Assembly (NCBI GenBank): GCA_963751455.1
Contig: CAVVUN010000001.1
Coordinates: forward strand, 512,001 to 576,000
Source of the DNA: Nitrospirota bacterium
GTDB lineage: Bacteria > Nitrospirota > UBA9217
Direction of reading: 5' to 3'
Length of the DNA: 64,000 nt
A model generated the notes under the pieces. The model saw only the letters and a list, made by a program, of their open reading frames with translations, was not told where the DNA came from and did not search any database. Shown piece after piece: positions 32,263 to 47,517 of the stretch; position 1 is the first letter of the stretch; every line of letters starts with the position of its first letter. Both the position numbers and the translations under genes were made by a program.

Positions 32263-32976
32263 TCAAGCAGATTCAAGAGCGCGTTTTTCCCACTGTTCGA
32301 CGTTTACTCCCTTAATCAAAAGCCACAAGAGCAATATTAATTCCCCGATAAACGTAAACTGGGAAATTGTTATATCAAGGTCGGGCAAAAGAAACAATAC
32401 AATGGAATCTATCACATAGCCAAAGCCTGCAATGACCAGCAAAATGCCCAGAATTCCCGGAAGAAAACCCGACTTGAAAACTAAATACCCCATAGGGAAT
32501 AGCCAAAGACCCCAGAATATCTGGGTAATAAAAAGCCCATAATGGTGTAAGTTCAGAAAGAACATTACGTGGGAATATAACTGATCTGCACTGAATACTT
32601 TCAGAGAGTCAGCGCCGTTCAATAGCAGCAAGACGGCAAAGTGGTTAAGCTCATTTAACATCGCAATAGGAGCAGCGGCCAATGCGAATACAACCATAAG
32701 CACAGCATGGTTATTATTAACCGATTTGAGTAATTTATATAATAAGAGAGCTGCCAAAATAGTGACAATAGGTGTAGCCAAAGCGCACATAATACTGAGA
32801 CGGAACAGCGATGAGGAAGCTATAATATTATTGGCTGTTGTCAAGGTATCCCCCGGCACAGTAAGGGAGGGAATATACATGCCGCCGAAGAAACCGAGCG
32901 GAGCCAAAAGCAGATAAAGGAACCCTGCAGCTCTTGCGATCTTATTAACTGAATTCATTTTTCCTTTGGCAGTCAT
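32263..32976 (-). CDS. DUF4386 family membrane protein
   Basis: ARAAGFLYL..., FWGLWLFPMGYLVFKSGFLP, WLLIKG; ATG after AGGAG. Confidence 0.75.
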   Translation of the reverse strand: MTAKGKMNSVNKIARAAGFLYLLLAPLGFFGGMYIPSLTVPGDTLTTANNIIASSSLFRLSIMCALATPIVTILAALLLYKLLKSVNNNHAVLMVVFALAAAPIAMLNELNHFAVLLLLNGADSLKVFSADQLYSHVMFFLNLHHYGLFITQIFWGLWLFPMGYLVFKSGFLPGILGILLVIAGFGYVIDSIVLFLLPDLDITISQFTFIGELILLLWLLIKGVNVEQWEKRALESA

Positions 32977-33057
32977 CGTTTTTTCTCCTTTGACTATCCC
33001 GATATCGTCTATTTCAAGAAACAATATCTGACTCTAAAGGTTTTCCGCGGCGCGGTT

Positions 33058-33502: not shown

Positions 33503-33562
33503 TTATACACGGCTGCCTCCTATCGCGGCCGGATTGAACCCTTTAACGATCAGCCATATCAA
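33503..33562 (-). pseudogene. 3' remnant of a third DUF4386 gene cut by the Y1 element
   Basis: Translates LIWLIVKGFNPAAIGGSRV*, matching the family C-terminus (compare WLLIKG in 32263..32976). Confidence 0.55.
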
Positions 33563-33593
33563 AACCTTTAGAACCTTTAGAGAACCTTTAGGG

Positions 33594-34463
33594 TCAAGTC
33601 TTTTTTGTTGCATTTTCGTATTCACGAAGCCAGCGGCTGATCGTCGAGTAGTGGACGGCCACATGACGGGCAAGTTCACTCTGATGATAACCGTATTTTT
33701 CCACGGCCTCGGACACCTTTTTCATCAGTTTGCGATGATTGTTCATGGCCGAGTCGGGCAGCAAAACGGCAAGCGACGGTCGAGTCGAATATCGCTGACT
33801 CCGGGGAATTTCGGGAATGTCCTTGTGCTTTTTGAGATAATCCGTAAGCTTATCTACGAAATCGTCCTCACCTAAAAGCGCTTGGCCTCGCACTTCCGTC
33901 CAGATCGTCTTCTTTCCAATACCCCACTGAACGAACTGGCGATACTCTTTTTCCGCTTTATCTCGTTTTCTGCTGAATTGACCGAGCACCCAGTCCTTTG
34001 TGAGGCAGGGATGAGGTTCTGCCTTACCCGCCGTCGCAAGGTAACTGGACCACTTCCAGTCTTCCGGCGCTTCGACCATCTTTGCTCTTACCGGATTTAG
34101 AACCACATATCGGCAGACCTCAAGGAGATGACTGTCTTTCTGGATCAAGATGGCCTTATACCGGCCCTGGAATAAATGCCCGGACCTTCCGTGATACTTG
34201 TTGAAAAGTTGCGTATAGACGCCGTTCAATTGGCGCATACCGAGAGAAAGATTGCCTTCCGGGGTCTCGATAAGAAGGTGGTAATGATTTGTCATGAGGC
34301 AATACGCATGACAGATCCAATTGTACCGCTTGTTGACGTGCTGGACCGTGTTCAGGAAGTTTTCGCGGTCCTGGTCGTTTTTGAATACGGACTTCTTCTC
34401 ATTGCCACGGGATGTTACGTGATAGACCGCACCGGCATATTCTATTCTTAGAGGTCGGGCCAT
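33594..34463 (-). CDS. REP-associated/IS200-like Y1 tyrosine transposase with C-terminal HTH
   Basis: YHVTSRGN, LMTNHYHLL (HUH), GHLFQGRY, RYVVLNPVRA, WSSY. Confidence 0.9.
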   Translation of the reverse strand: MARPLRIEYAGAVYHVTSRGNEKKSVFKNDQDRENFLNTVQHVNKRYNWICHAYCLMTNHYHLLIETPEGNLSLGMRQLNGVYTQLFNKYHGRSGHLFQGRYKAILIQKDSHLLEVCRYVVLNPVRAKMVEAPEDWKWSSYLATAGKAEPHPCLTKDWVLGQFSRKRDKAEKEYRQFVQWGIGKKTIWTEVRGQALLGEDDFVDKLTDYLKKHKDIPEIPRSQRYSTRPSLAVLLPDSAMNNHRKLMKKVSEAVEKYGYHQSELARHVAVHYSTISRWLREYENATKKT

Positions 34464-34469
34464 GGGGCG

Positions 34470-34498
34470 ACTGTAGCAGAAATCAGAATAAAATGCAA
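34470..34498 (-). promoter_or_regulatory. Transposase promoter, probably leaderless; -35 lies inside the TIR
   Basis: TTGCAT-17 bp-TACAGT-6 nt-ATG, conserved in copy 2. Confidence 0.55.
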
Positions 34499-34597
34499 CG
34501 AAAAAGACTTGACCCTAAAGGTTCCGTTAGCGTTAGTAAAATTGATGGAACTAACAAAAAAATGTAAAATGCAATATCTGCCATATCATTTTTCCCG

Positions 34598-34656
34598 GTA
34601 CAGCCGCGCGGGTGAGGAGCGTGCTTTTCGCGACTCACTCGACCCGCTCGTTAACA
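34598..34656 (-). other. attC site (R' box GCT variant)
   Basis: TGTTAAC-GAGCGGGTCGAGTGAGTCGCGAAAAGCACGCTCCTCACCCGCGCG-GCTGTAC directly after a stop codon; homologous to 46476-46533. Confidence 0.7.
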
Positions 34657-35238
34657 TCATGTTCTTAATTGAAGTAATTGCTCCAGCGAGACCCGCAGTA
34701 TGTCAGAGTTAACAGCATGAGTAACGTCAGCGGATACGCTAATACTGTTTCGAGCCAACACAGGGAACGACCAACCATTTTTAATTAAAATTCTTATGGC
34801 TTCTTTTCGTGATGAATTGTTTAGATACCTTTTCGCTTCCTCCGGTGAATTGGAGTAAATGTTGTATTTATCAAGTTCTGGATCATTGGCAATAACTTTT
34901 TTTGCGAATAAAACTCTGCTTGGCCCTGAATAAGAAAATAATTTCAACTTGCTTTTTGAGATTGAACTGCATCTGAGTTCTAATCTGTTCGGCGGTGCAC
35001 CTTCGACACGGGTATATGTCAGCGTAAACTTACAGTCATTAAATTGCCCCGTAAAGCAAGGTTCGTCAGAAAGAAATTTTCTTGCCTCCGATAATGAACC
35101 GGGGAATTGGGTCGATAGATTTTCTAGCTTCTCATAGTAAGGCTGCATAACTCGACGATTTCTTCGGAAGAAATATGCAACCACGAATGTAAGAACAAAA
35201 ATACCGCCAATGAATGTAATATAAGGGTTCATGCTCAT
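34657..35238 (-). CDS. Hypothetical membrane-anchored cassette protein
   Basis: 193-aa ORF with an N-terminal TM segment, bounded by attC sites. Confidence 0.7.
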   Translation of the reverse strand: MSMNPYITFIGGIFVLTFVVAYFFRRNRRVMQPYYEKLENLSTQFPGSLSEARKFLSDEPCFTGQFNDCKFTLTYTRVEGAPPNRLELRCSSISKSKLKLFSYSGPSRVLFAKKVIANDPELDKYNIYSNSPEEAKRYLNNSSRKEAIRILIKNGWSFPVLARNSISVSADVTHAVNSDILRVSLEQLLQLRT

Positions 35239-35244
35239 TTAGGG

Positions 35245-35300
35245 GGTTAACGCGCGCGTGTACCGCCGCGTAGCGGTCGGACACGACGCGCTGGTTGGAA
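35245..35300 (-). other. attC site
   Basis: TTCCAAC-CAGCGCGTCGTGTCCGACCGCTACGCGGCGGTACACGCGCGC-GTTAACC imperfect hairpin. Confidence 0.75.
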
Positions 35301-35394
35301 TTCATCTTCTTGTCATGATGGAGAACCAGCTTGTCAATATCAAAGATTCGACCCAAGACACTCCCAATCAGTGCATCCGCTTGTTATGGCAATC

Positions 35395-38055
35395 TTATCG
35401 TCGATCTATAGAATATGAATAAGATCCACTGGCGGAACCACAACCCATGTTGTTACAACCTATGAATCTGAGCTTAGTCCTCTTGAATTGTCCTGGATTA
35501 GCATAGTACTGAAACGTCCCCGATGGCCCGCTGATTGAACCGTCATTAGATGATGGAGTCGGTGCAGATGGCGTGCTAGGCGTACTGCCGTCATACGTGT
35601 TGACCATCGTATAATAAATTGTCGTGGCACCGCTACTGCCGACGCTGATATTCTGCGGAGATGACGTCCAGCTGCCGCTGGACGGGCTTACCGCGACACT
35701 GCCCGGCACTGTCCTTAAGTCTATCGAGTATGAGTACGATCCGCTTGCTGGTCCGCACCCCGCACTATTGCAACCTATAAACCGGAGCTTGGTTCTCTTG
35801 TGCTGATCAGAGCTTGCGTACAACTGAAACGTTCCGGAAGCTCCGCTGATTGAACCGTCGTTCGAAGAGGGTGACGGCGCATCAGGATCAGAAGGCGCAC
35901 TGCCGTCATACGTGTTGACCATCCTATAATAAATTGTCGTTGCGCCGCTACTGCCGACGCTGATATTCTGCGGAGATGACGTCCAGCTGCCGCTGGACGG
36001 GCTTACCGCGACACTGCCCGGCACTGTCCTTAAGTCTATCGAGTATGAGTACGATCCGCTTGCTGGTCCGCACCCCGCACTATTGCAACCTATAAACCGG
36101 AGCTTGGTTCTCTTGTGCTGATCAGAGCTTGCGTACAACTGAAACGTTCCGGAAGCTCCGCTGATTGAACCGTCGTTCGAAGAGGGTGACGGCGCATCAG
36201 GATCAGAAGGAGTACTGCCGTCATACGTGTTGACCATCCTATAATAAATTGTCGTTGCGCCGCTACTGCCGACGCTGATATTCTGCGGAGATGACGTCCA
36301 GCTGCCGCTGGACGGGCTTACAGATATGCCAGCCGGTATGACTTCAGAATTGACAATAACAGTGTAGTTAACAATATTACTCATCTTACCTGAACTATCC
36401 GCACCCCACCAGGTATAGGTTCCAGCCGGTCGATCCGAAGGTATCGTGTAAGTGATGGAAAACGTTCCATCTGGTTTAATACTCTGCGAAAGAGTTGGGA
36501 ACTCTGAGCCATCGGGCTTCTTAAAATGAAGCACAGCTGTGCTGTTGGGAGTGAAACCTGTGCCCCACTGCGACACTGTATCGGCCTGCTTCGCCGTCAT
36601 CGGAGTCTGAGCAACTGTCGGGGATACTGTTATGCTATCGACAACGGAAAGGACGAAATTCTTCTCTGCTTTTTGTGAATTATTATCGTAAACTTGCACT
36701 GTAAACTGATAAGTTCCGGTATTTGTGGGTATTCCTGAAATCTCACCGCTTGCACTTAAGCTTAGACCTGTTGGCACTATACCGTCAGAAAGTTTCCATG
36801 AGTATGGCCACGAGCCACCTAAAGCTGAAAAACGGAAGTAATGGTAAGCGCCGACTTTACCAACAGATAGAATCTTCGACGTTGAAATTGATATTGGAAG
36901 AGGCTGCGACAAATTGTCAACAGAGATAGCACTATCTCGCTCTGCAATATCACCACTTGAGTCGGTTACAGCTACTGTGAATTGGTAGGTGCCTTGTTGT
37001 GAAGGAGCGCCAGAAATTACACCATCCTTTGATAATGAAATCCCGGGAGGCAGATTGCCTTTAGCAATTGACCATGTATATGGTGGAGTGCCGTCAACTG
37101 CGGACAAAATAAGACTAAAAGCGTTGCCAACAATTAATGACGGGCAATATGACAAACTCCCTTCAACTATACCAACCTTAAAATTCTTATCCTTTTTCGT
37201 AACGCGCAGACCGATTGCTTGGCCACCATTACCCGGAAGCTTACCAACACGCTCCCATTCATCAAGAAAGCTTTTCCTTGTAAAACTCCGTTTATGAGCA
37301 TACGTTTCATATAGCCAGGTCCGTCCGGGATCATTAGCATAAACATAATCTTCGTCAATCCCTACAACTAGCATCCAATGTTGGACGCTCCCTTGCTTCA
37401 TTGTCCCCGGAATCGAGTTATTACCTCCTTGGGAAGAAACTACAACTAAGACAGGGTTTCCGTCTGCTAATTCAGAACGTAGCGCTTCTAATGTTGGCTT
37501 TATGTACTCAACGCTAAAATTACCCTCTTTCTCTAACAACTGTTTCATCTGTTTGTTGTCCGTATAGTCGCCGGTGTATTTATCTCTTCCATATCTTGGT
37601 GGATTATAACCGTCAATATTAGAAATATTGTCAGGATATTGGGGACCCATCCAATCGATCATATTTTTCAGATTTGACCATGCAGTGTCATGATTCGGCG
37701 CGATATCGATGTGATAATGAAATGCTTTTAGCATCAAATAGCTTGCAGGCCCACAGTTCACATTATTTCCATCCGGGCCAGATTCAAATTGAGATATATA
37801 GGGAACATCAAGCGTTTGGCTATCCTTCTTTAATGCGTGCGGCGCCAAAACGGTTTTCGAATAAGTTGAATTTGTCGCGCTATTACCAACAACAGCAACA
37901 AGATCATCATGACTGACTATAACTGCTCCCGCCAATTGAGGCCCATCATCTATAGGATCGCCACTACCGCCACCGTTATGACAAGAAATTAGCAAAAGAC
38001 CAAATAAGAGGAAAAATATGATCCTTCTAACGAGTCTATATTTTTGTCTCATCAA
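35395..38055 (-). CDS. Lipoprotein: C39-like cysteine peptidase + two putative Ig domains + three 105-aa FN3/chitobiase-like repeats
   Basis: LISC lipobox; VPYISQ..NCGPAS..HWMLVVG..NDP; G.LP.G.SLS..G.ISG.P repeats. Confidence 0.78.
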   Translation of the reverse strand: MMRQKYRLVRRIIFFLLFGLLLISCHNGGGSGDPIDDGPQLAGAVIVSHDDLVAVVGNSATNSTYSKTVLAPHALKKDSQTLDVPYISQFESGPDGNNVNCGPASYLMLKAFHYHIDIAPNHDTAWSNLKNMIDWMGPQYPDNISNIDGYNPPRYGRDKYTGDYTDNKQMKQLLEKEGNFSVEYIKPTLEALRSELADGNPVLVVVSSQGGNNSIPGTMKQGSVQHWMLVVGIDEDYVYANDPGRTWLYETYAHKRSFTRKSFLDEWERVGKLPGNGGQAIGLRVTKKDKNFKVGIVEGSLSYCPSLIVGNAFSLILSAVDGTPPYTWSIAKGNLPPGISLSKDGVISGAPSQQGTYQFTVAVTDSSGDIAERDSAISVDNLSQPLPISISTSKILSVGKVGAYHYFRFSALGGSWPYSWKLSDGIVPTGLSLSASGEISGIPTNTGTYQFTVQVYDNNSQKAEKNFVLSVVDSITVSPTVAQTPMTAKQADTVSQWGTGFTPNSTAVLHFKKPDGSEFPTLSQSIKPDGTFSITYTIPSDRPAGTYTWWGADSSGKMSNIVNYTVIVNSEVIPAGISVSPSSGSWTSSPQNISVGSSGATTIYYRMVNTYDGSTPSDPDAPSPSSNDGSISGASGTFQLYASSDQHKRTKLRFIGCNSAGCGPASGSYSYSIDLRTVPGSVAVSPSSGSWTSSPQNISVGSSGATTIYYRMVNTYDGSAPSDPDAPSPSSNDGSISGASGTFQLYASSDQHKRTKLRFIGCNSAGCGPASGSYSYSIDLRTVPGSVAVSPSSGSWTSSPQNISVGSSGATTIYYTMVNTYDGSTPSTPSAPTPSSNDGSISGPSGTFQYYANPGQFKRTKLRFIGCNNMGCGSASGSYSYSIDRR
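35398..36325. repeat. Three 315-bp intragenic tandem repeats
   Basis: ATGACGTCCAGCTGCCGCTGG recurs at 35661, 35976 and 36291. Confidence 0.9.
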
Positions 38056-38108
38056 AAACCTTCCCCTTATGCAAGCATCTTACTGACGACGTAGTCTAGG
38101 CATTCAAT

Positions 38109-38422
38109 GTTCAATGGGGCGATAACTCGCTGCGCCCGCAGGGCGCGTCGGGTTCATTGCCTGGTTCCAGCGGCGCTTTGTACCGCGTCTCACAGGCAAT
38201 AAGCGAGTTATCGCCCCATTCCAGCGGCGGCTGGAACGTCCCGGATGAGCGGCTGCCCCCGCAGGGGGTAAGTCCGTCTCGATCCGGTTTGATGGCTCGC
38301 GCTGGTTTCGCGCGAGACATCAGGATCGGCCGCTCATCCGGGACGATGGACCGCGCGAAGCGCGGGCCATCGCGCGGGTAAGCCGCGTGCTTTTCGCGGC
38401 GGACTTGACCCGCTGGTTGAAA
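38109..38422 (-). other. Three consecutive ORF-less attC-like hairpins
   Basis: TTTCAAC..GATGGCC; GTCCCGGATGAGCGGC..GCCGCTCATCCGGGAC-GTTCCAG; CTGGAAT-GGGGCGATAACTCGCT..AGCGAGTTATCGCCCC-ATTGAAC. Confidence 0.65.
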
Positions 38423-38435
38423 TCCTCGCTGTGTT

Positions 38436-39851
38436 TCATTGACTGGTCAATAAAACACACGGAACGATTGCGTTGGTCATCACCGGATTATATGAGGAGC
38501 GGGTCCAAGTCACTCCGTCCGGGGATGTAGCATAACCGATGTTGTCTTGGGTTCCTACCTGATACCAATACCACATTTTGTACAGACCACCATCGAAAAT
38601 GACATTTGGAACGATTGCGTTCGTCATTACCGGATTATGCGAAGAGCGGGTCCAAGTCACTCCGTCCGGGGATGTAGCATAACCGATGTTGTCTTGGGTT
38701 CCTACCTGATACCAATACCACATTTTGTACAGACCACTATCGAAAATGACATTCGGAACGATTGCGTTCGTCATTACCGGATTATGCGAAGAGCGGGTCC
38801 AAGTCAATCCGTCCGGCGATGTAGCATAACCGATGTTGTCTTGGGTTCCTACCTGATACCAATACCACATTTTGTACAGACCACCATCGAAAATGACATT
38901 TGGAACGATTGCGTTCGTTATTACCGGATTATGCGAAGAGCGGGTCCAAGTCACTCCGTCCGGGGATGTAGCATAACCGATGTTGTCTTGGGTTCCTACC
39001 TGATACCAATACCACATTTTGTACAGACCACTATCGAAAATGACATTCGGAACGATTGCGTTCGTCATTACCGGATTATGCGAAGAGCGGGTCCAAGTCA
39101 ATCCGTCCGGCGATGTAGCATAGCCGATGTTGTCTTGGGTTCCTACCTGATACCAATACCACATACTGAAAACCTTGCCCGTAGCTTCAGGTGTGGTACT
39201 CGTCACCGTTAAGGTATAGGATGTCGTTGAATTATCAGCGGCGGTAACTGTATATAAGACCGGATTTGTGAAGTCGTTCGGCGTTGTACCACTTACCTGA
39301 ATCGCAGAACCAACTTTGACGTTTGCGCCTGTTGTCGTAAAGGTTGCGACGAGTGCGGTAACATTCGTACCATTCGGGACAGTGATGGAGATTGTCTTTG
39401 CTGTTTCATTTATCGATCCTGTTGCAGCAGGGTTTGTGAATGAGAACGCTGTAAGGGCTTTTGCTGAACTGGAGGCTATCGTCACAGTCACAGTGTATGT
39501 TGCAGTTGAGTTATCAGCGGCAGCAACCGTATATGAAACCGGATTTGTGAAGTCGTTCGGCGTTGTACCACTTACCTGAATCGCAGAACCAACTTTGACG
39601 CTTGCGCCTGTTGTCGTAAAGGTTGCGACGAGTGCGGTAACATTCGTACCATTCGGGACAGTGATGGAGATTGTCTTTGCTGTTTCGTTTATTGTTCCTG
39701 TTGCTGCAGGGCTTGTAAAAGAAAAGGCAGTGATTGTTTTTGAACTGTCCGAGTTGCCTCCTCCTGTGCTCGTATTGTTATTTCCGCTGCAAAAAGACAA
39801 AGCAACGCCAACCATTAACATAAAGAAAGCCCATACCATACGTCTAAGCAT
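38436..39851 (-). CDS. Lipoprotein with two Ig-like (DUF5018-like) domains and a five-repeat Asp-box beta-propeller
   Basis: LSFC lipobox-like; two ~94-aa repeats; five 49-aa repeats with SPDG.TW. Confidence 0.78.
   Translation of the reverse strand: MLRRMVWAFFMLMVGVALSFCSGNNNTSTGGGNSDSSKTITAFSFTSPAATGTINETAKTISITVPNGTNVTALVATFTTTGASVKVGSAIQVSGTTPNDFTNPVSYTVAAADNSTATYTVTVTIASSSAKALTAFSFTNPAATGSINETAKTISITVPNGTNVTALVATFTTTGANVKVGSAIQVSGTTPNDFTNPVLYTVTAADNSTTSYTLTVTSTTPEATGKVFSMWYWYQVGTQDNIGYATSPDGLTWTRSSHNPVMTNAIVPNVIFDSGLYKMWYWYQVGTQDNIGYATSPDGVTWTRSSHNPVITNAIVPNVIFDGGLYKMWYWYQVGTQDNIGYATSPDGLTWTRSSHNPVMTNAIVPNVIFDSGLYKMWYWYQVGTQDNIGYATSPDGVTWTRSSHNPVMTNAIVPNVIFDGGLYKMWYWYQVGTQDNIGYATSPDGVTWTRSSYNPVMTNAIVPCVLLTSQ
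38461..39165. repeat. Five near-identical 147-bp intragenic tandem repeats
   Basis: MWYWYQVGTQDNIGYATSPDG.TWTRSSHNPV.TNAIVPNVIFD.GLYK x5 (last unit partial). Confidence 0.92.
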
Positions 39852-39929
39852 TTTCTGGTTCTCCTTCTGGAAGTTAAGCGGTCATTGTCCGCTTGTACTG
39901 CTGGTTGGCACAGAGCGGTATTTTGCCGG

Positions 39930-39988
39930 AGCCAACGCGCGGGTGTGGGGCGCGGTTCGCAGCGACCCACACGACCCGCTTGTTGAAG
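39930..39988 (-). other. attC site
   Basis: CTTCAAC-AAGCGGGTCGTGTGGGTCGCTGCGAACCGCGCCCCACACCCGCGC-GTTGGCT. Confidence 0.75.
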
Positions 39989-40024
39989 CGATTTTATGGG
40001 ATGCAATAAAGTTATTTTTACGCG

Positions 40025-40366
40025 TTATCCTATCGGAGAGTCCACTTTATTGAGAATTGGTCGTCGCCCATGTATACTTGTAAATTGATTTAACCAAGTT
40101 CTTTCAAGTTTAGGTAGGTTTTTTGGATTGTAGATTGCAAAGTAGAACCAAATCGCCTTACCTTCTAGTGTTGGATTTGTTTTTTCTGGATTGTCGAGGT
40201 GTTGCTGAAATCTAACGAATAAATTATCCGAAAGTCCAATATATAGGATGTCATTGTCAAACGTAGTAAGAACATAACAACCTGTCTCATTAGGTACTGA
40301 TTTAAACGATGCACGTTTAAAATGTACCTTGTCTTTTGGTAGCGGAATTAGTTCGGTGATCTTCAT
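40025..40366 (-). CDS. Stand-alone GIY-YIG nuclease family protein
   Basis: GCYVL..ILYIGLS.NL..R..QH..LE..N motif order; ATGA overlap with the upstream gene. Confidence 0.8.
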   Translation of the reverse strand: MKITELIPLPKDKVHFKRASFKSVPNETGCYVLTTFDNDILYIGLSDNLFVRFQQHLDNPEKTNPTLEGKAIWFYFAIYNPKNLPKLERTWLNQFTSIHGRRPILNKVDSPIG

Positions 40367-41502
40367 AATTCCATTTCTTTTTCCGTTTTAATGTCGGATT
40401 GTTTATGAAGCGCCTTCACCATTTCGCTATTTATCTTACTTAATGCGCCAGTATTTAAACCACTTGCAGTACCACTTTTCACCCAGAAATCTGTATGGCC
40501 AACTCCAGCTCCATCACCTTCAACATTTTCAAAAACATTTTCCAATAATGACTGCATCGTTGAAACTTTATAATCGGGCATATTAACCATCTTGTTGTAA
40601 AATGGAACGCAAAATTTAGAGAATAATTCAACTCCATTGTATTTGAATAGAACTGTTGGCTCACTATCGCCGAGAATGTTGGTAATAGCCTTCCAATAGT
40701 TCATGTAAATCCTATGTTGCCTGTCTTCCTTTTCTGTGTTGCAAACAGGATTATTTGCAACTAAAACATATTTCTTAATTGCTTTCACAAAACTCTTCTG
40801 ATTAATACTTCCATCACTATTATCATCATTGGCCATTTTAATTTTATTTTGCCAAGGACTGTCTTTGTCATTGTTTAAAAAATCTACATACTGTAGAGCT
40901 TTTTCATCTTCACCTTTTTGGACTGAATTGAGAATCCATTTTGGTAAATTTGGCGTATCATCGACACCCATTGCTTTTGTTAATCTCGCTCGGATTCTCT
41001 GAGCAACGCCTTCCTCAACACTTTTTTGTGTGGTATTAACAATGAGGAAGTGACACATTTGCGCAATCTCAGAAAGATTAACTGCAATATTGACAGATAC
41101 TTCAAATTCTAGAACACGAGGATCTTTATCAGCCGCCATTTTTAAACCTTCAACACGGTGTTGACCATCAACAACATTGAATGGCCCTACTTCATCGATG
41201 TCTATTTCAATGGTGTTATTATTCGGATGGAATGCTATATTTTTATCCGTTGCAATAAAAATGCTTGTCGGCAAAAATGCATCTTTAGTTTCTTGTCCCG
41301 CAACAATATAGTCGGCAAGCTTTTTTGCTCTTGACTTGTTTAGTAACCGCTGATAACCCTTATCACTAGCATTTTCAGGGTCGAGTCTCTCTATGCTATA
41401 AAAGTTCGGAATTATTAAATCTGAAACTTTTAATGATGTAGCGTAAAGGATCAGATCTCCTTGTTTTACCAAAGAGGCAGGTCTAACGATTTTCTTACTC
41501 AT
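40363..41502 (-). CDS. DGQHR-domain protein (DndB/ParB-like fold)
   Basis: GYQRLLN..R, P.SI, VVDGQHR, F..VNTTQK; ATG 41502 follows AGGAG. Confidence 0.85.
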   Translation of the reverse strand: MSKKIVRPASLVKQGDLILYATSLKVSDLIIPNFYSIERLDPENASDKGYQRLLNKSRAKKLADYIVAGQETKDAFLPTSIFIATDKNIAFHPNNNTIEIDIDEVGPFNVVDGQHRVEGLKMAADKDPRVLEFEVSVNIAVNLSEIAQMCHFLIVNTTQKSVEEGVAQRIRARLTKAMGVDDTPNLPKWILNSVQKGEDEKALQYVDFLNNDKDSPWQNKIKMANDDNSDGSINQKSFVKAIKKYVLVANNPVCNTEKEDRQHRIYMNYWKAITNILGDSEPTVLFKYNGVELFSKFCVPFYNKMVNMPDYKVSTMQSLLENVFENVEGDGAGVGHTDFWVKSGTASGLNTGALSKINSEMVKALHKQSDIKTEKEMEL

Positions 41503-41732
41503 ATTTTCATCTCTCCTTTTTAATGTGTCGGCAACAATACTTGTCTCAAAATCAACCAGTGTTTGATGGGACGGAAACCGCCCCGCCATTTCAGAAAATT
41601 CGGTAATGGCGGGGTGAAAATTAAATATTTTTGTTCAATAATGTAAACTTCTGCAACTGCGGTTTTCGCCTTGCCAAATACTGAATTTCGGAATTGGCAG
41701 GATAAAATTTCTGCAACTTTAAATGCAAATCG

Positions 41733-41761
41733 AGTATATTTTATGCATTATGGCCTGTCAA
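41733..41761 (-). promoter_or_regulatory. Near-consensus sigma70 promoter driving the cassette strand
   Basis: TTGACA-17 bp-TATACT. Confidence 0.75.
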
Positions 41762-41888
41762 GATAAAGTTGTTCAAAGTTGTTGAATATTCGGATCGGAA
41801 TACAACGCGAGAACACCTTTCCCGAATTAAGAAAAACACATGAATGAGACACTCTTATGAATACCAGCATGATGATAGCGTTCTCCTC

Positions 41889-41917
41889 TTGATAAGTGAA
41901 CATTTGTTCACTATATT
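41889..41917 (+). promoter_or_regulatory. intI promoter with a palindromic LexA-like box in the spacer
   Basis: TTGATA-17 bp-TATATT enclosing AGTGAAC-ATTT-GTTCACT. Confidence 0.7.
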
Positions 41918-41956
41918 ATTGTTTATATGGTTCATGAAGCTGTCTGAAGCAACCGT

Positions 41957-43288
41957 TTGATTCTCATACGACCCGTGCAACCCATACCCAAAGATATTCT
42001 GGCTAAATTTGACGGCATTCTGAAACAACGGAATGTCCCCCTTTGCTCCCGATCCGATTACCGGAAGTGGCTGCTGTATTTTCTCGACTTCCGAGCTAAA
42101 TATCCTCTTCCGGAAGGCAAATCGGATCAAGTGAGGGCGTTCGCGGACAAGCTGCGGTCAAAGAATCAATCCTCCATGCAAATAGAGCATGCAGCTAAAG
42201 CGATTTCGCTGTTCTTTGCTTTGCAACAGGGAAAAAAGACTATTTCATCGTCGGCCGCCGCGCAGATTGCGCCTCCTGCAGCCGGGCCGCATTGCGGCCT
42301 ACAGGTAAAATACATCCAAGCACAGCAACTGTGCTCAACAACAGCGACGAAGGAATCCGAGATGGTTTGCGAGCCGCCGGCGCCCTCCGCGCCGTACACG
42401 CCCAGGATCCGGGGCGGCAAACACTACGATGAATGGCGCTGCCTCAAAAAAACCGAATCCCCGGCGTGGGACAAGGTCATTGAAAATCTTGCTGCGGAAA
42501 TAAAGCTGCGGCATTACTCTCGAAAAACGCTCAAGCATTATGCGGACTGGAGCCGCAAGTTCCAGAACTACCTGAAAGACAAACCACCTTCGGAATTGTC
42601 TCCATCGGAGGTGAAGGCGTACCTGACGTATCTGGCCGTGAACTGCAAGGTATCCTCAAGCCACCAGAACCAGGCGTTCAACGCACTCTTGTTTCTGTTC
42701 AGACATGTTTTAAAGACAGATTTCGGCATCCATAAGGACATCCCGCGCGCGAAGAAATCGAATTACATTCCCGTGGTTCTTTCCCGCGAGGAAATCGACG
42801 CTGTTTTGAGACATCTCGAATATCCATACAAGCTTGTGGCCCAACTCCAGTACGGCTGCGGGTTACGCATTTCGGAAGGCTGTAAACTGCGGGTGAAGGA
42901 TTTCAATTTTGACGCCGGCATTCTCACTGTCCGCGGAAAAGGCGATAAAACCCGCACCGTGCCTATTCCGCAAAGAATCGTGCCGGAGCTTCAGGCCCAA
43001 ATAGAGACCGTGAAAAAAATGCATGACGAGGATCTGGCAACAGGGTACGCAGGGGTTTTTCTCGATGATCAACTGGAGAAAAAATATCCACGAGCCGCGA
43101 AGGAGCTTGTCTGGCAATGGTTTCTCCCGAAGCAAACGTTAACCTTTGTTGCGGAAACGAAGGAGCGGCGGCGGTATCATCTTCATGACTCTCATGTTCA
43201 GGATGCGCTGAACGACGCCGTCAGGAGGGCAAAGCTCACTAAGCGCGTTACCTCCCACACCTTCCGTCACTCATTCGCGAACCTTTAG
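41957..43288 (+). pseudogene. intI: Integron integrase with long N-terminal extension, truncated after box II RH by the Y1 element
   Basis: HYSRKT..Y..W, QNQAFNALLFLF, PVVLS, YGCGLRISE, IntI-specific patch (LEKKYPRAAKELVWQWF..RRYHLH); ends HTFRHSFA with no LGH..TT.IY. Confidence 0.88.
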
Positions 43289-44157
43289 CGAACCTTTAGG
43301 AACCTTTAGGAACCTTTAGGGTCAAGTCTTTTTCGTTGCATTTTCGTATTCACGAAGCCAGCGGCTGATCGTCGAGTAGTGGACGGCCACATGGCGGGCT
43401 AGTTCACTCTGATGATAACCGTATTTTTCCACGGCCTCGGACACTTTTTTCATCAGTTTGCGATGATTGTTCATGACTGAGTCGGGCAGCAAAACGGCAA
43501 GCGACGGCCGGGTCGAATATCGCTGACTCCGGGGAATTTCGGGAATGTCGATACCCCACTGAACGAACTGGCGATACTCTTTTTCCGCTTTATCTCGTTT
43601 TCTGCTGAATTGACCGAGCACCCAGTCCTTTGTGAGGCAGGGGTGAGATTCAGCTTTACCCGCGGTCGCAAGGTAACTGGACCACTTCCAGCCTTCCGGC
43701 GCTTCGACCATCCTTGCTCTTACCGGATTTAGAACCACATATCGGCAGACCTCAAGGAGATGACTGTCTTTCTGGATCAAGATAGCCTTATACCGGCCCT
43801 GGAATAAATGCCCGGACCTGCCGTGATACTTGTTGAAAAGTTGCGTATACACGCTGTTCAATTGGCGCATACCGAGAGAAAGATTGCCTTCCGGGGTCTC
43901 GATAAGAAGGTGGTAATGATTTGTCATGAGGCAATACGCATGACAGATCCAATTGTACCGCTTGTTGACGTGCTGGACCGTGTTCAGGAAGTTTTCGCGG
44001 TCCTGGTCGTTTTTGAATACGGGCTTCTTTTCGTTACCACGAGAAGTTACGTGATAGACTGCACCGGCATATTCTATTCTTAGAGGTCGGGCCATGGGGC
44101 GACTGTAGCAGAAATCAGAATGAAATGCAACGAAAAAGACTTGACCCTAAAGGTTCC
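43280..44157 (-). mobile_element. Y1/HUH transposase element copy 2 with perfect 35-bp TIRs and 4x AACCTTTAG
   Basis: GGAACCTTTAGGGTCAAGTCTTTTTCGTTGCATTT / AAATGCAACGAAAAAGACTTGACCCTAAAGGTTCC. Confidence 0.8.
43322..44095 (-). CDS. Y1 tyrosine transposase, copy 2 with a 32-aa in-frame deletion
   Basis: Near-identical to 33594..34463 but lacks GKKTIW...KKHK. Confidence 0.85.
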   Translation of the reverse strand: MARPLRIEYAGAVYHVTSRGNEKKPVFKNDQDRENFLNTVQHVNKRYNWICHAYCLMTNHYHLLIETPEGNLSLGMRQLNSVYTQLFNKYHGRSGHLFQGRYKAILIQKDSHLLEVCRYVVLNPVRARMVEAPEGWKWSSYLATAGKAESHPCLTKDWVLGQFSRKRDKAEKEYRQFVQWGIDIPEIPRSQRYSTRPSLAVLLPDSVMNNHRKLMKKVSEAVEKYGYHQSELARHVAVHYSTISRWLREYENATKKT

Positions 44158-44196
44158 CCTTGGACTGCTAGTTGGCGTAGAGCGGTATTTTGTCGG

Positions 44197-44312
44197 AGCC
44201 AACTCGCCGGTCACTCGCCGCAAGGCGAGTCGATGTGGACCGGCAGGTGATATTTTTAACGCGACGCTGAGGGGCGCGTTTTCAGCGACCCTCTCGAGCG
44301 CTATGGTTAGAA
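44197..44312 (-). other. Two adjacent ORF-less attC sites (44254-44312 and 44197-44253)
   Basis: TTCTAAC..GTTAAAA then ATATCAC..GTTGGCT, both with internal dyads. Confidence 0.68.
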
Positions 44313-44437
44313 CGCTCACAAAGAAAAAGTATTAATAAGTGATGTCTGACACTGCTACATGATCACATTGATTTGTCCTTAGAAGTTGATGTGGTGCATC
44401 TGCACCACTTTCATGGCCGCTTTGATAGAAATGGGCT

Positions 44438-46360
44438 TTACGATCTAAATCTCTCACCAACAAGATGTATCGCCAGCTTTGCAAATTCATACAGATCCGC
44501 GTTATCCCGTTCAATTAATTTTATGCCTATTTCTGTAACTTCTGGAATAAGCAAGCAGAGAAATTTCCTTTTGTTATGTGCCATATCTCTTGATAAATTA
44601 AGTGCGGCAGTAAATAATTTATTTGCTTCGCCATAATTCGCTTCCAACAAGTAACACAACGCCAAGTTGTAAGATACTAGTGCGTCAGATAAACTAACTG
44701 ATGTTTGTTTTTGCGCTTTAATTAAGTACTCCTTAGCCTCCGAAATTTTGTTTAATGATAAATAAAGGTATCCGATATTGTTTAATACAGATACACTACT
44801 TTTCTTATCGCAAAAGGTAAGCGCTTTTCCCAAGTCACTGATTACCTCAAGTCGATAACCACCGTATTTGTCATTCCCGGTTTTAGCAAGTTCAAATTTT
44901 GTTTTTGAAAGGTTGTCATATACCGTAAAGCATCCCTTCATATTTGTTGACTTGCAGATTGTTATTGCTTTTTGTAAATCTATACAAGCTTCTTCTAGCT
45001 GCCCTATGTTAGATAAAGATGCGCCTCTAGAACAAAGTGCTCCTGCATGATTTGGCTCATACGATAAAGCTTTATTGAAATATTTAATTGCCTGCGTATC
45101 GTCATCCGTTATTAGCCCCAACTGGTACCAAGCATTTGCATTATTTTCATCAAAGGATAATGCTTCGGTTAGTGCTTTTTTTGCGTAATCTTTTTGGTCT
45201 AAACTTTTCAAACAAATTGCTTTGCAGACATGATAGCTAGATTCACTGGACCTTATTTTTATTGCTTGATTAAATTGAAGCAATGCCTCTTGATAGTCAT
45301 CGTTGTCTAGAAGAAGTAATCCATAATGGAAATGGATGGAAGAACAACCGTTATTGAAATCCAGTCCTTTTTTATAGCAAATAGCAGCCTCGTCCTTTCT
45401 GCCCTGTTGCTCCAGTAGAATTGCTTTGTGATGCCATAAATATTCGTTTTTTTCATCAATTTTAATTGCATCATTTAAGCAGTTTATGGCTAAATCTTTT
45501 TCATCTTGCTGAGTAAAAATTTCTGCTTTTAAAATTAATAATTGCACGTCGGAACTATGATCTTTTATTAATTCGTCAAGAAGCTTCTTTGATTCCTCAT
45601 ATTTCTTTAAATTGACCAGTATCTGTATTTTTTGGTAATAATAAAAAGAGGTTAATGTAATATTATATTTTTTGGACGCTTTTTCTATTTCGTTCACACA
45701 GACCCGGAACTTAATTTCGTCATCTGTGGTTATCTTACTTCCACTATTTTTAAGTTCTGAAAATGTTACAAGGGACTCTTTGACTTCTTTCTCAATATAA
45801 TCTTTTTCAGGAAATACCAGTTTCATAAATGCTTCTTCAACCAGCGGCTCAACTTTCTTCAGTTCGTTAGTCAATATTTCTCTTAGATTCTTGGGATCAC
45901 TATATTTATATCTGACATACATTTGATCTTTCACGTCTGAGAAGTCCTTGTCCATGTCTATCAGTGCAACAGGAGGTTTCTTCATCGGCTCTTTCATAAA
46001 GCTCTGAATATCAATACATGCTTTTTGTTCCAGCAGCACTATACAAGGCTTGCGAAGTCCAACCAGAATTCCATATTCAAATATAACATTCGGCCTAAAA
46101 CCATCCAAAATTATGATCGCTAACGAGCATCTATTTAAAAAATCTAGAAGCTGAGAGTATTGACTGTGGCCAGGTATTCCATGGATTGAAAGTCTTTTTG
46201 TATCATATTTTCCTGTTGCTTCTAATACTGTTTCAATGGCATCAAGCGTGATCGCAATATGCGGCTCTCTAGACGAATAAACAATGAAACATGTTTTTGT
46301 TGATTCTTTATGCATGTCTAGTCGTATTTGCATGTAGTGAACAATTTTTGTTTCATCCAT
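44438..46360 (-). CDS. TIR-like/nucleoside-deoxyribosyltransferase-like domain + TPR repeat protein
   Basis: N-terminal CFIVYS...RPNVIFEYG.LVGLRKP.IVL; many C-terminal TPR units. Confidence 0.72.
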   Translation of the reverse strand: MDETKIVHYMQIRLDMHKESTKTCFIVYSSREPHIAITLDAIETVLEATGKYDTKRLSIHGIPGHSQYSQLLDFLNRCSLAIIILDGFRPNVIFEYGILVGLRKPCIVLLEQKACIDIQSFMKEPMKKPPVALIDMDKDFSDVKDQMYVRYKYSDPKNLREILTNELKKVEPLVEEAFMKLVFPEKDYIEKEVKESLVTFSELKNSGSKITTDDEIKFRVCVNEIEKASKKYNITLTSFYYYQKIQILVNLKKYEESKKLLDELIKDHSSDVQLLILKAEIFTQQDEKDLAINCLNDAIKIDEKNEYLWHHKAILLEQQGRKDEAAICYKKGLDFNNGCSSIHFHYGLLLLDNDDYQEALLQFNQAIKIRSSESSYHVCKAICLKSLDQKDYAKKALTEALSFDENNANAWYQLGLITDDDTQAIKYFNKALSYEPNHAGALCSRGASLSNIGQLEEACIDLQKAITICKSTNMKGCFTVYDNLSKTKFELAKTGNDKYGGYRLEVISDLGKALTFCDKKSSVSVLNNIGYLYLSLNKISEAKEYLIKAQKQTSVSLSDALVSYNLALCYLLEANYGEANKLFTAALNLSRDMAHNKRKFLCLLIPEVTEIGIKLIERDNADLYEFAKLAIHLVGERFRS

Positions 46361-46475
46361 GGTGCATTACTCCCTTCTGGAACATAGATACTGCGTAGAT
46401 TGAGCTGAATGTTCTTTGTGAAACCCAACAAACCTTCTGAAGAAACGTTGATCAAGCTGAACCATTTTGCCCAGC

Positions 46476-46533
46476 CTACAACGCGCGCGTGAGGAGCAAG
46501 CTTTTCGCGACTCACTCGACGCGTATGTTATCT
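46476..46533 (-). other. attC site
   Basis: AGATAAC (contains the stop codon of the TPR gene) ... GTTGTAG. Confidence 0.8.
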
Positions 46534-47517
46534 TACAGCCTCTTGGAGCACCTTCAGGTGCTCTGATGTTTCTTTGCTTTTAGGGTTCAATTTCAAACTT
46601 TCCTGAATTACTTTCTCAGCCTCTGCCGACTTCCCCATTTTATGTAATATCCATCCCTTCGTATCGAGAAAATATGAATTGTCGGGTTGATGTTCTAGAG
46701 CTGCTGTTATAAGACCTACAGCTTTATTGAGGTACTTTTCGTTCTCAGCATAGTCCATCGCAAGTTCATTCATAATCATTGGATCTTTCGGATATAGAGA
46801 TTGTGCAGTTTCTAATGTTGTCAATGAGCCAGACAGATCTTTAATATCTTTCTGGAACCTAGACAGCATTATATAAATATCTGCCTTTGAAACTGTCTCT
46901 GCATCATGAGTGTCGCGTTTCATTTCTGAGATAAAACTTTTAAGAATGTTTATAGCGATATCAATATTACCTTTTACCCAATTACACATCGAGCTGATAA
47001 TTGCCTTCTTAGTTGGATCATCACATTTTGCTTCAGCTTTATGTAAATGTTCGAGAGCTTCATCTTTTCGACCCATTTTCTTCAAAATTTTAGCAGTCTC
47101 TATATGAAGCCCGATAGCGTCAGCGCCGTTTCTTAACGCTTCTTGACATGCCTGGAGAGCCATTTCGGTCTCATTGAGCGCGTCATAACATGTCCCCACT
47201 ATAAACAGGGCGAAATCATCTCGGGGATTAAGCATCAAATATTTATTAAAGTAGAAGACGGCATTTTTATAATTACCAAGATTTAAATAAGAACGCCCAA
47301 GATAGTACCAATTGTATTTTGAAAAAGTCTTGTCATTATTATGTGAACTTTCAGATTTTTCAAATTTCGATATAGCTTTTCGGTACTTTCCCAGTTCGAA
47401 AAATATATTCCCCAGATTTGCATAATGTGTTTCTTGAAGGGTAGGTATGGTCCAAAAAACAAGGTGATTCCAATATAGTTTCAGGTACAAGATCAGATAT
47501 CTTAATCGAGTAGGCAT
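46528..47517 (-). CDS. TPR repeat cassette protein
   Basis: Repeated LG..Y...G.Y..A motifs, LDTKGWILHKMG; bounded by attC sites. Confidence 0.78.
   Translation of the reverse strand: MPTRLRYLILYLKLYWNHLVFWTIPTLQETHYANLGNIFFELGKYRKAISKFEKSESSHNNDKTFSKYNWYYLGRSYLNLGNYKNAVFYFNKYLMLNPRDDFALFIVGTCYDALNETEMALQACQEALRNGADAIGLHIETAKILKKMGRKDEALEHLHKAEAKCDDPTKKAIISSMCNWVKGNIDIAINILKSFISEMKRDTHDAETVSKADIYIMLSRFQKDIKDLSGSLTTLETAQSLYPKDPMIMNELAMDYAENEKYLNKAVGLITAALEHQPDNSYFLDTKGWILHKMGKSAEAEKVIQESLKLNPKSKETSEHLKVLQEAVR

Follow-up and report, generated by a model that had tools for sequence, protein, structure and literature searches.

Two copies of a transposase-bearing element lie in a 64,000-nt stretch of a Nitrospirota genome (assembly GCA_963751455.1, contig CAVVUN010000001.1, positions 512,001 to 576,000; hereafter the window), and the downstream end of each is a stack of short copies of its own tip. 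How might an element come to repeat its end in this manner? The two copies are in direct orientation at 33563-34525 and 43280-44157, as had been reported in an original prediction made from the sequence, and the repeat counts given there are borne out. The terminal 9-mer AACCTTTAG begins at 33563, 33572, and 33583 in copy 1 (three units, with spacers of 0 and 2 nt) and at 43280, 43291, 43301, and 43311 in copy 2 (four units, with spacers of 2, 1, and 1 nt), and the upstream ends of both copies have one unit each. As detailed below, the element is assigned to the TIRtrons, and duplications of TIRtron ends are real, family-wide, and present on both ends. The arrays probably record the sites at which the enzyme nicks DNA and, following brief synthesis, seals it again.

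Identity of the element

The 289-amino-acid protein of copy 1 contains a Y1_Tnp domain (PF01797, E 1e-13), scores above the cut-off of NF047646 (repetitive extragenic palindrome [REP]-associated tyrosine transposase), and matches the helix-turn-helix (HTH) family HTH_28 at its cut-off over residues 256-284, with model helices at 243-287. Residues H60, H62, and Y119 are invariant in 58 relatives. The best match to its predicted structure (predicted local distance difference test score of 86.7) is TnpA_REP 4ER8 (E 5e-7), and a sequence search of solved structures returned no matches. Its NHYH, LFQG, YVVLNP, and WSS segments fit the NH[YF]H, FQ, Y..NP, and SS motifs tabulated for Y1 subclass 2.1 (PMC6006769, Table 1). 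The flanking terminal inverted repeats (TIRs) carry a GGGGWSAS-like motif, here AGGGTCAA, which departs from the consensus at two of eight positions; GGGGTCA starts half of the 279 related ends described below. On the basis of these motifs and domains, the element is classified as a TIRtron and its protein as TIRYT, of Y1 subclass 2.1.

TIRtron and TIRYT were named by Di Nocera et al. 2013 (PMC3733652), and the TnpA_Y1 subclass 2.1 of Quentin et al. 2018, whose proteins were present in 14.9% of strains in that survey, was tentatively equated by its authors with them (PMC6006769). The mechanism had been predicted to be little described. Although the element class is thus already published, its stacked-tip end footprint was not found in open-licence PubMed Central and bioRxiv literature, in which just two works mention TIRYT or TIRtron by name and no assay of TIRtron substrate, cut site, or mobility was found. 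The closest named relatives of the TIRYT protein are from Nitrospirota, and TIRYT matches are present in 32 of the 64 genomes searched in the family (E 1e-100).

End duplications across the family

Ends were collected from 205 loci plus the source genome, which provided 297 gene-anchored ends, 279 of them distinct; 30 further loci were left out of the end counts. The gene-anchored set was used in place of a first, loose-motif count (38/204), which included chance ends. All positions are counted from the R of the core RGGGTCAR, taken as 0, with negative values running outward.

An exact tandem duplication touching the core is found at 66 of the 279 distinct ends, representing 58 records and 57 different tips. 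This is above chance, as judged from control anchors shifted outward (17/1048, some within array tails) or inward (0/1116). The arrays had been described as one-sided, which holds for the two window copies only, because duplications occur at 34 of 160 upstream and 32 of 119 downstream ends (Fisher p = 0.32). Indeed, an upstream-type end of the window-copy family at C3:359725 has three units.

Two other features of the window copies do not extend to the family. The repeated unit is not a fixed 9-mer, since innermost units are 7-26 nt long and the tips are nearly as numerous as the duplicated ends themselves. Nor is a 35-bp TIR the family trait: the repeat in common is a core of ~25 nt (0 to +24), shared by both ends of the 93 two-ended elements far above shuffled pairs, and the outer 8 nt match fully in 4 of these 93. 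Arrays grow in place at shared loci: the locus common to L031 and L034 (98% alike) differs between them in end state, and that common to L111 and L192 has an extra unit in one of the two.

Geometry of the duplicated units

The edges of the duplicated units fall in restricted positions. In 62 single-run cases the outer edge is unimodal and lies at -13 to -5. Inner edges form two groups, with 33 cases at +1 to +4, none at +5, 28 at +6 to +9, and five at +12 to +28. The positions are sharpest in 30 exact cases, defined by having no microhomology, so that ambiguous junctions are excluded by construction. Outer edges in this subset concentrate at -10 to -8 (21 cases) and have no base preference, and inner edges are found at +1 (5), +2 (7), +6 (3), +7 (11), +8 (2), and +12 (2).

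Three broken ends were also noted (L017 upstream, L189, and L202). The L017 end breaks off at +2 and picks up again near +19, and L189 still duplicates up to +7 despite a lost G-run.

Junctions and long self-duplications

A second line of evidence comes from the flanks. In 13 of 14 hand-picked ends, which were chosen from matches ending at most 45 nt from the core, homology of the flank to an intact paralogue ends at -11 to -6, and the paralogue beyond that point is unlike the tip. At the 14th, homology ends at the outer edge of the array of copy 2. In the unselected list, flank homology ends at -13 to -5 in 18 of 53 cases. Tips are thus carried along, and the terminus of the element is the outer edge of the units. 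There is no common target motif at the 14 junctions and no target duplication above shuffles in the 93 two-ended elements, so target duplication was rejected.

TIRYT-gene sequence adjoins 11 of the 279 ends, and in 10 of these 11 it is in direct orientation, two of the 10 being weak matches. The five ends joined to the interior of their own element are all direct (C1:185199, C15:1324347, L074, L090, and L199). These long duplications range from ~140 to ~900 nt. L146 and L149 also share a locus but not their end state: the upstream ends are joined ~590 nt apart, and the downstream flanks are unrelated.

Proposed mechanism and alternatives

We propose, with a probability of roughly 0.55, that TIRtron ends stack polar tip duplications through nicking by the Y1 HUH enzyme outside the core, inward extension by the host, and resealing. 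The HTH would bind the RGGGTCAR core at either end, and the enzyme would nick ~9 nt outside it, mostly at -10 to -8, at a site placed by distance rather than by sequence. The tyrosine would stay bound to the tip while synthesis by a host polymerase proceeds inward from the freed 3' end. This extension would usually halt at +1/+2 or +7, adding units of 9-19 nt on the inner side, and longer extension could yield the partial tandem copies of ~140-900 nt. The tyrosine-bound tip would then be resealed onto the extended 3' end, one unit per cycle. The predicted idea that the enzyme re-joins its own end in this stepwise fashion is supported as an inference. A nick-extend-reseal scheme has been proposed for amplification of bacterial interspersed mosaic elements (BIMEs) (PMC3333891, Fig. 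7B legend).

If the tip were instead sealed to a distant 3' end, one end would move alone, producing a one-ended joint. Such events would delete neighbouring sequence and truncate genes, the integrase described below being one example. The overall scheme would resemble an aborted rolling-circle start at an element with two origins. It is tempting, but tentative, to view TIRtrons as two-origin rolling-circle elements in which a one-tyrosine HUH enzyme with an HTH ruler nicks a fixed distance beyond either TIR and joins the tip to any 3' end, with no target sequence or duplication. Such elements would follow a route of transposition and rearrangement distinct from those of IS200/IS605, IS91, and REPtrons, and would leave a dated stack of aborted starts while remodelling integrons.

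Several observations weigh against this proposal. Duplication products cannot reveal which strand carries the tyrosine. Of the 11 exact +7 inner edges, 10 read CA^G, corresponding on the opposite strand to C^T, the dinucleotide at which TnpA_REP cleaves. Relatives are not independent, and a single nested cluster contributes three of the 10 direct cases. A few upstream ends lack the front of the core (~4-6 of 181 genes, by eye), an outcome also expected from reciprocal exchange. No clean empty site for the element was found, and a search for empty sites in plasmids matched 1 record of 72,556. Finally, a whole triple array of 31 nt is common to copy 1 (C1:545560-545590) and the copy at C15:1292507 (C15:1292525-1292555), which are the most similar copies (98.0%) and occupy unrelated loci. 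This suggests that an end array can travel intact, and the shared triple is not accounted for by a nick whose distance is set from the innermost core alone.

The alternative that fares best, which we nonetheless regard as unlikely, invokes two cuts of opposite polarity. The outward-running strand would be nicked in the core (C^T at +7 or the G-run), extended outward past the tip, and resealed with a 3' end supplied by a second nick near -9, as in the BIME model. Because the inner edge is sharp and at +7 is mostly C^T, it may mark an enzyme cut, whether the first or the second, instead of a point where the polymerase halted, and TnpA_REP, which cuts CT, has such a model (PMC3333891). Two cuts also predict identical short products. 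However, the +1/+2 edges (12/30) are not C^T, a misfit that led us to reject the idea that every unit arises from one C^T site, and the long duplications and target junctions hold the -9 edge while their other edge is arbitrary and not C^T.

Similarly doubtful is an origin without new synthesis, whereby the enzyme exchanges strands between copies of an end, such as sister strands at a fork, or an excised copy is re-inserted into its own end. Y1 enzymes do carry out single-stranded DNA strand transfer at forks (PMC6006769; PMC3333891). In the source genome, TIRtrons form clusters and are nested within each other, and some core-truncated ends exist. The gains are nevertheless far above the visible reciprocal losses when the duplicated upstream ends are set beside the few that lack the core front, with the caveat that lost ends may be under-sampled, and random re-insertion would not give the strong bias to direct orientation noted above.

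We give a slim chance to slippage or repair during host replication at a protein-bound or fold-back end, with no enzyme cut. Runs of identical units do occur in some arrays (L014, L039, L042, and L126) and could be extended by slippage once two units are present. However, microhomology of 0, 1, 2, 3, and 8 nt is found in 30, 16, 10, 5, and 1 cases, which is at chance level (random expectation for 0-3 nt, 35, 17, 7, and 2), and unit lengths are unequal in 29 of 31 multi-unit arrays. The latter count comes from a full-array parser that gives too few units for long arrays and also reports one in 67 of 837 controls, and thus is for rough use only. In addition, edges are anchored to the core and the junction position, with no duplication at inward controls, and individual ends form weak folds (-1.7 kcal/mol in the case of the upstream end).

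An assembly or sequencing artefact is scarcely credible given that the same geometry recurs in all 66 duplicated ends across many assemblies and that tandem tip copies are also present in loose contig ends from public runs, even though only 6-7% of words matched in six public read runs and none of the four examined covered the flanks of the window arrays.

With nicking, inward extension, and resealing as the preferred reading, the arrays supply a testable map, with the nick ~9 nt beyond the core, halts at +1/+2 and +7, ends that behave alike, and no target motif. If the proposal is true, HUH transposition would include a new mode, in which a single tyrosine serves to join a defined end to arbitrary 3' ends. 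Such an enzyme would also generate deletions and truncated genes in integrons, and could perhaps serve as a compact tool for joining single-stranded DNA.

Relation to known HUH elements

In the window copies, as in published TIRtrons, a RAYT-like HUH/Y gene is flanked by inverted repeats that bear a GGGGWSAS-like motif and sometimes overlap the gene (PMC3733652; PMC6006769). They likewise share the NHYH, FQ, YxxxNP, and SS motifs, an HTH_23/HTH_28 tail, and a lack of REPs. The available portions of these two papers hold no account of stacked tips, variable tips outside the core, junction positions, one-ended joints, or mobility. In contrast to published TIRtrons, the core here starts with AGGG, and the five copies in this genome are 93-98% alike, compared with a published mean intragenomic identity of 49% for subclass 2.1 (PMC6006769).

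TnpA_REP and REPtrons resemble this system in fold, in 5'-phosphotyrosine chemistry, and in the proposed route from nicking to tandem units (PMC3333891). As described there, REPtrons have hairpin REPs with a GTAG foot, a CT cut, and no HTH tail, and reportedly do not move as a unit. In the present elements, the repeated units are 7-26 nt long and anchored to a TIR core, with an outer edge set by distance. Hairpin REPs with a GTAG foot are not present in either window copy, whose ends are inverted arms with weak folds, and a REPtron identity was rejected for this reason.

IS91 transposases are two-tyrosine enzymes. The IS91/ISCR elements have in common with TIRtrons an HUH enzyme, the lack of target duplication, and one-ended events that rearrange neighbours, but the ori and ter ends of IS91 differ from each other and lack TIRs, and its target is a tetranucleotide (PMC13181058). 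Because the ends here are alike and carry TIRs, with no common target motif at the 14 junctions, an IS91/ISCR identity was rejected. Members of IS200/IS605 (IS608, ISDra2) share the Y1_Tnp domain and fold and produce no target duplication, but have subterminal hairpins rather than TIRs, a YxxxQ motif, and one active strand. With YVVLNP in place of YxxxQ, 289 amino acids including an HTH tail, TIRs, and symmetric ends, the element was judged not to belong to IS200/IS605 subclass 1.1.

Copies in the window and the source genome

The inverted arms were predicted to be ~35 bp and perfect in copy 2, which is correct: those of copy 2 (43309-43343 and 44123-44157) are 35 nt and 100% identical, and those of copy 1 (33582-33616 and 34490-34524) are 35 nt and 97% identical. 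In copy 1, the downstream array (33563..33591, plus strand) consists of three tip units (10/9, 9, and 11 nt), the core begins at 33590, and the downstream arm (33582..33616, plus strand) contains the TGA stop codon of the TIRYT gene (33594..34463, minus strand), as predicted. This gene encodes a Y1 HUH domain and a C-terminal HTH. The upstream arm (34490..34525, minus strand) has a single tip and a core from 34516. A -35 box had been placed in the TIR, and a hexamer, TTGCAT, does lie in the upstream arm, but it matches the consensus at 3 of 6 positions and a promoter scan made no call. The putative promoter (34470..34498, minus strand) would comprise TTGCAT, 17 nt, TACAGT, and 6 nt to the ATG. 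Although weak in copy 1, its position is backed by relatives, in which 32 of the 160 upstream ends, compared with 4 of the 119 downstream ends, have an exact TTGACA at +18.

Copy 2 has a downstream array of four units parsed as 11, 11, 10, and 10 nt (43280..43319, plus strand), a downstream arm (43309..43343, plus strand) with a core from 43318, and a TIRYT gene for 257 amino acids (43322..44095, minus strand) that differs from copy 1 by a 96-nt in-frame deletion between the core domain and the HTH. Its upstream arm (44123..44157, minus strand) has a single tip and is joined into a repeated cassette leader beside an attC-like hairpin. The array can be parsed as an 11-nt duplication opening with the CG that adjoins the tip, which is the end of an integrase Ala codon, followed by two of 10 nt. 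That of copy 1 parses as 9 nt and then 11 nt opening with the AG of the preceding unit. The apparent spacers thus arise because shifts of 1-2 nt in the outer edge take bases from the flank or the preceding unit. From this parse we infer that the newest unit is innermost, and the innermost unit of copy 1 is likely its newest.

A solo stub (33028..33044, minus strand) of a tip and partial core with one mismatch is located just after a truncated DUF4386 gene. Its first 11 nt are identical to the outermost unit of copy 1, and it could possibly be a scar of excision or abortion. An Rfam scan of window positions 28000-52000 gave no matches.

The five near-complete copies in the source genome are at unrelated loci, accompanied by dozens of related ends. 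One sibling (C15:1323421-1324719) is nested in another TIRtron gene, ~400 nt of which is gone. Another is interrupted at C1:505645-506258 by an element of ~610 nt with a weak Y1-type match, whose look suggests an IS200 type, unconfirmed by a family search. A unit of ~75 bp at C12:213392-213466, resembling a miniature inverted-repeat transposable element, has two facing TIR cores and a duplicated tip. Nested or partial TIRtron clusters (C15:211886-219110, C15:1291572-1295407, C15:1322959-1324809, and C12:233588-255523) may reflect local hopping or repeated one-ended joining. A mixed array at C12:235566 (minus strand) has an outer unit with a tip of the window-copy family, followed by a different tip and a different TIRtron end.

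Integron setting

Both elements and the cassette genes are on the minus strand of an integron context (34596..46545), and each copy lies where two broken, unrelated genes meet. On the evidence of repeat family D8 and of folding, attC-like hairpins are placed near 34600-34658, 38365-38424, 39940-39995, 44255-44318, and 46478-46535; a strict attC pattern scan gave no matches. The integron integrase (41957..43279, plus strand; TIGR02249, 292 bits) is truncated by copy 2 after HTFRHSFA and lacks the C-terminal ~46 amino acids present in paralogues. This missing part was not found beside any element end, and orphan pieces at C1:32096 and C12:96415 were rejected as candidates because they are other relics.

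Copy 1 has unrelated flanks. Its array is joined to the orphan 3' end of a probable DUF4386 gene (33503..33562, minus strand), recognized by eye from resemblance to the C terminus of the DUF4386 open reading frame (ORF) at 32263-33024. Its upstream tip seems to cut the 5' start of another cassette ORF (34526..34596, minus strand; ~20 codons). The flanks do not rejoin for either window copy.

The first cassettes beside the integrase (40025-41589, minus strand) encode an overlapping DGQHR-domain protein and GIY-YIG nuclease, which might be a defence pair. Large cassette genes at 35395-39851 (minus strand), with internal tandem repeats of 315, 147, and 279 nt, encode a C39-like peptidase with Ig domains and a repeat-rich lipoprotein-like ORF. 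The integron integrases at window positions 41957-43288, C2:447005-448672, and C3:356530-358123 have an extra N-terminal ~175 amino acids preceding the SAM-like domain.

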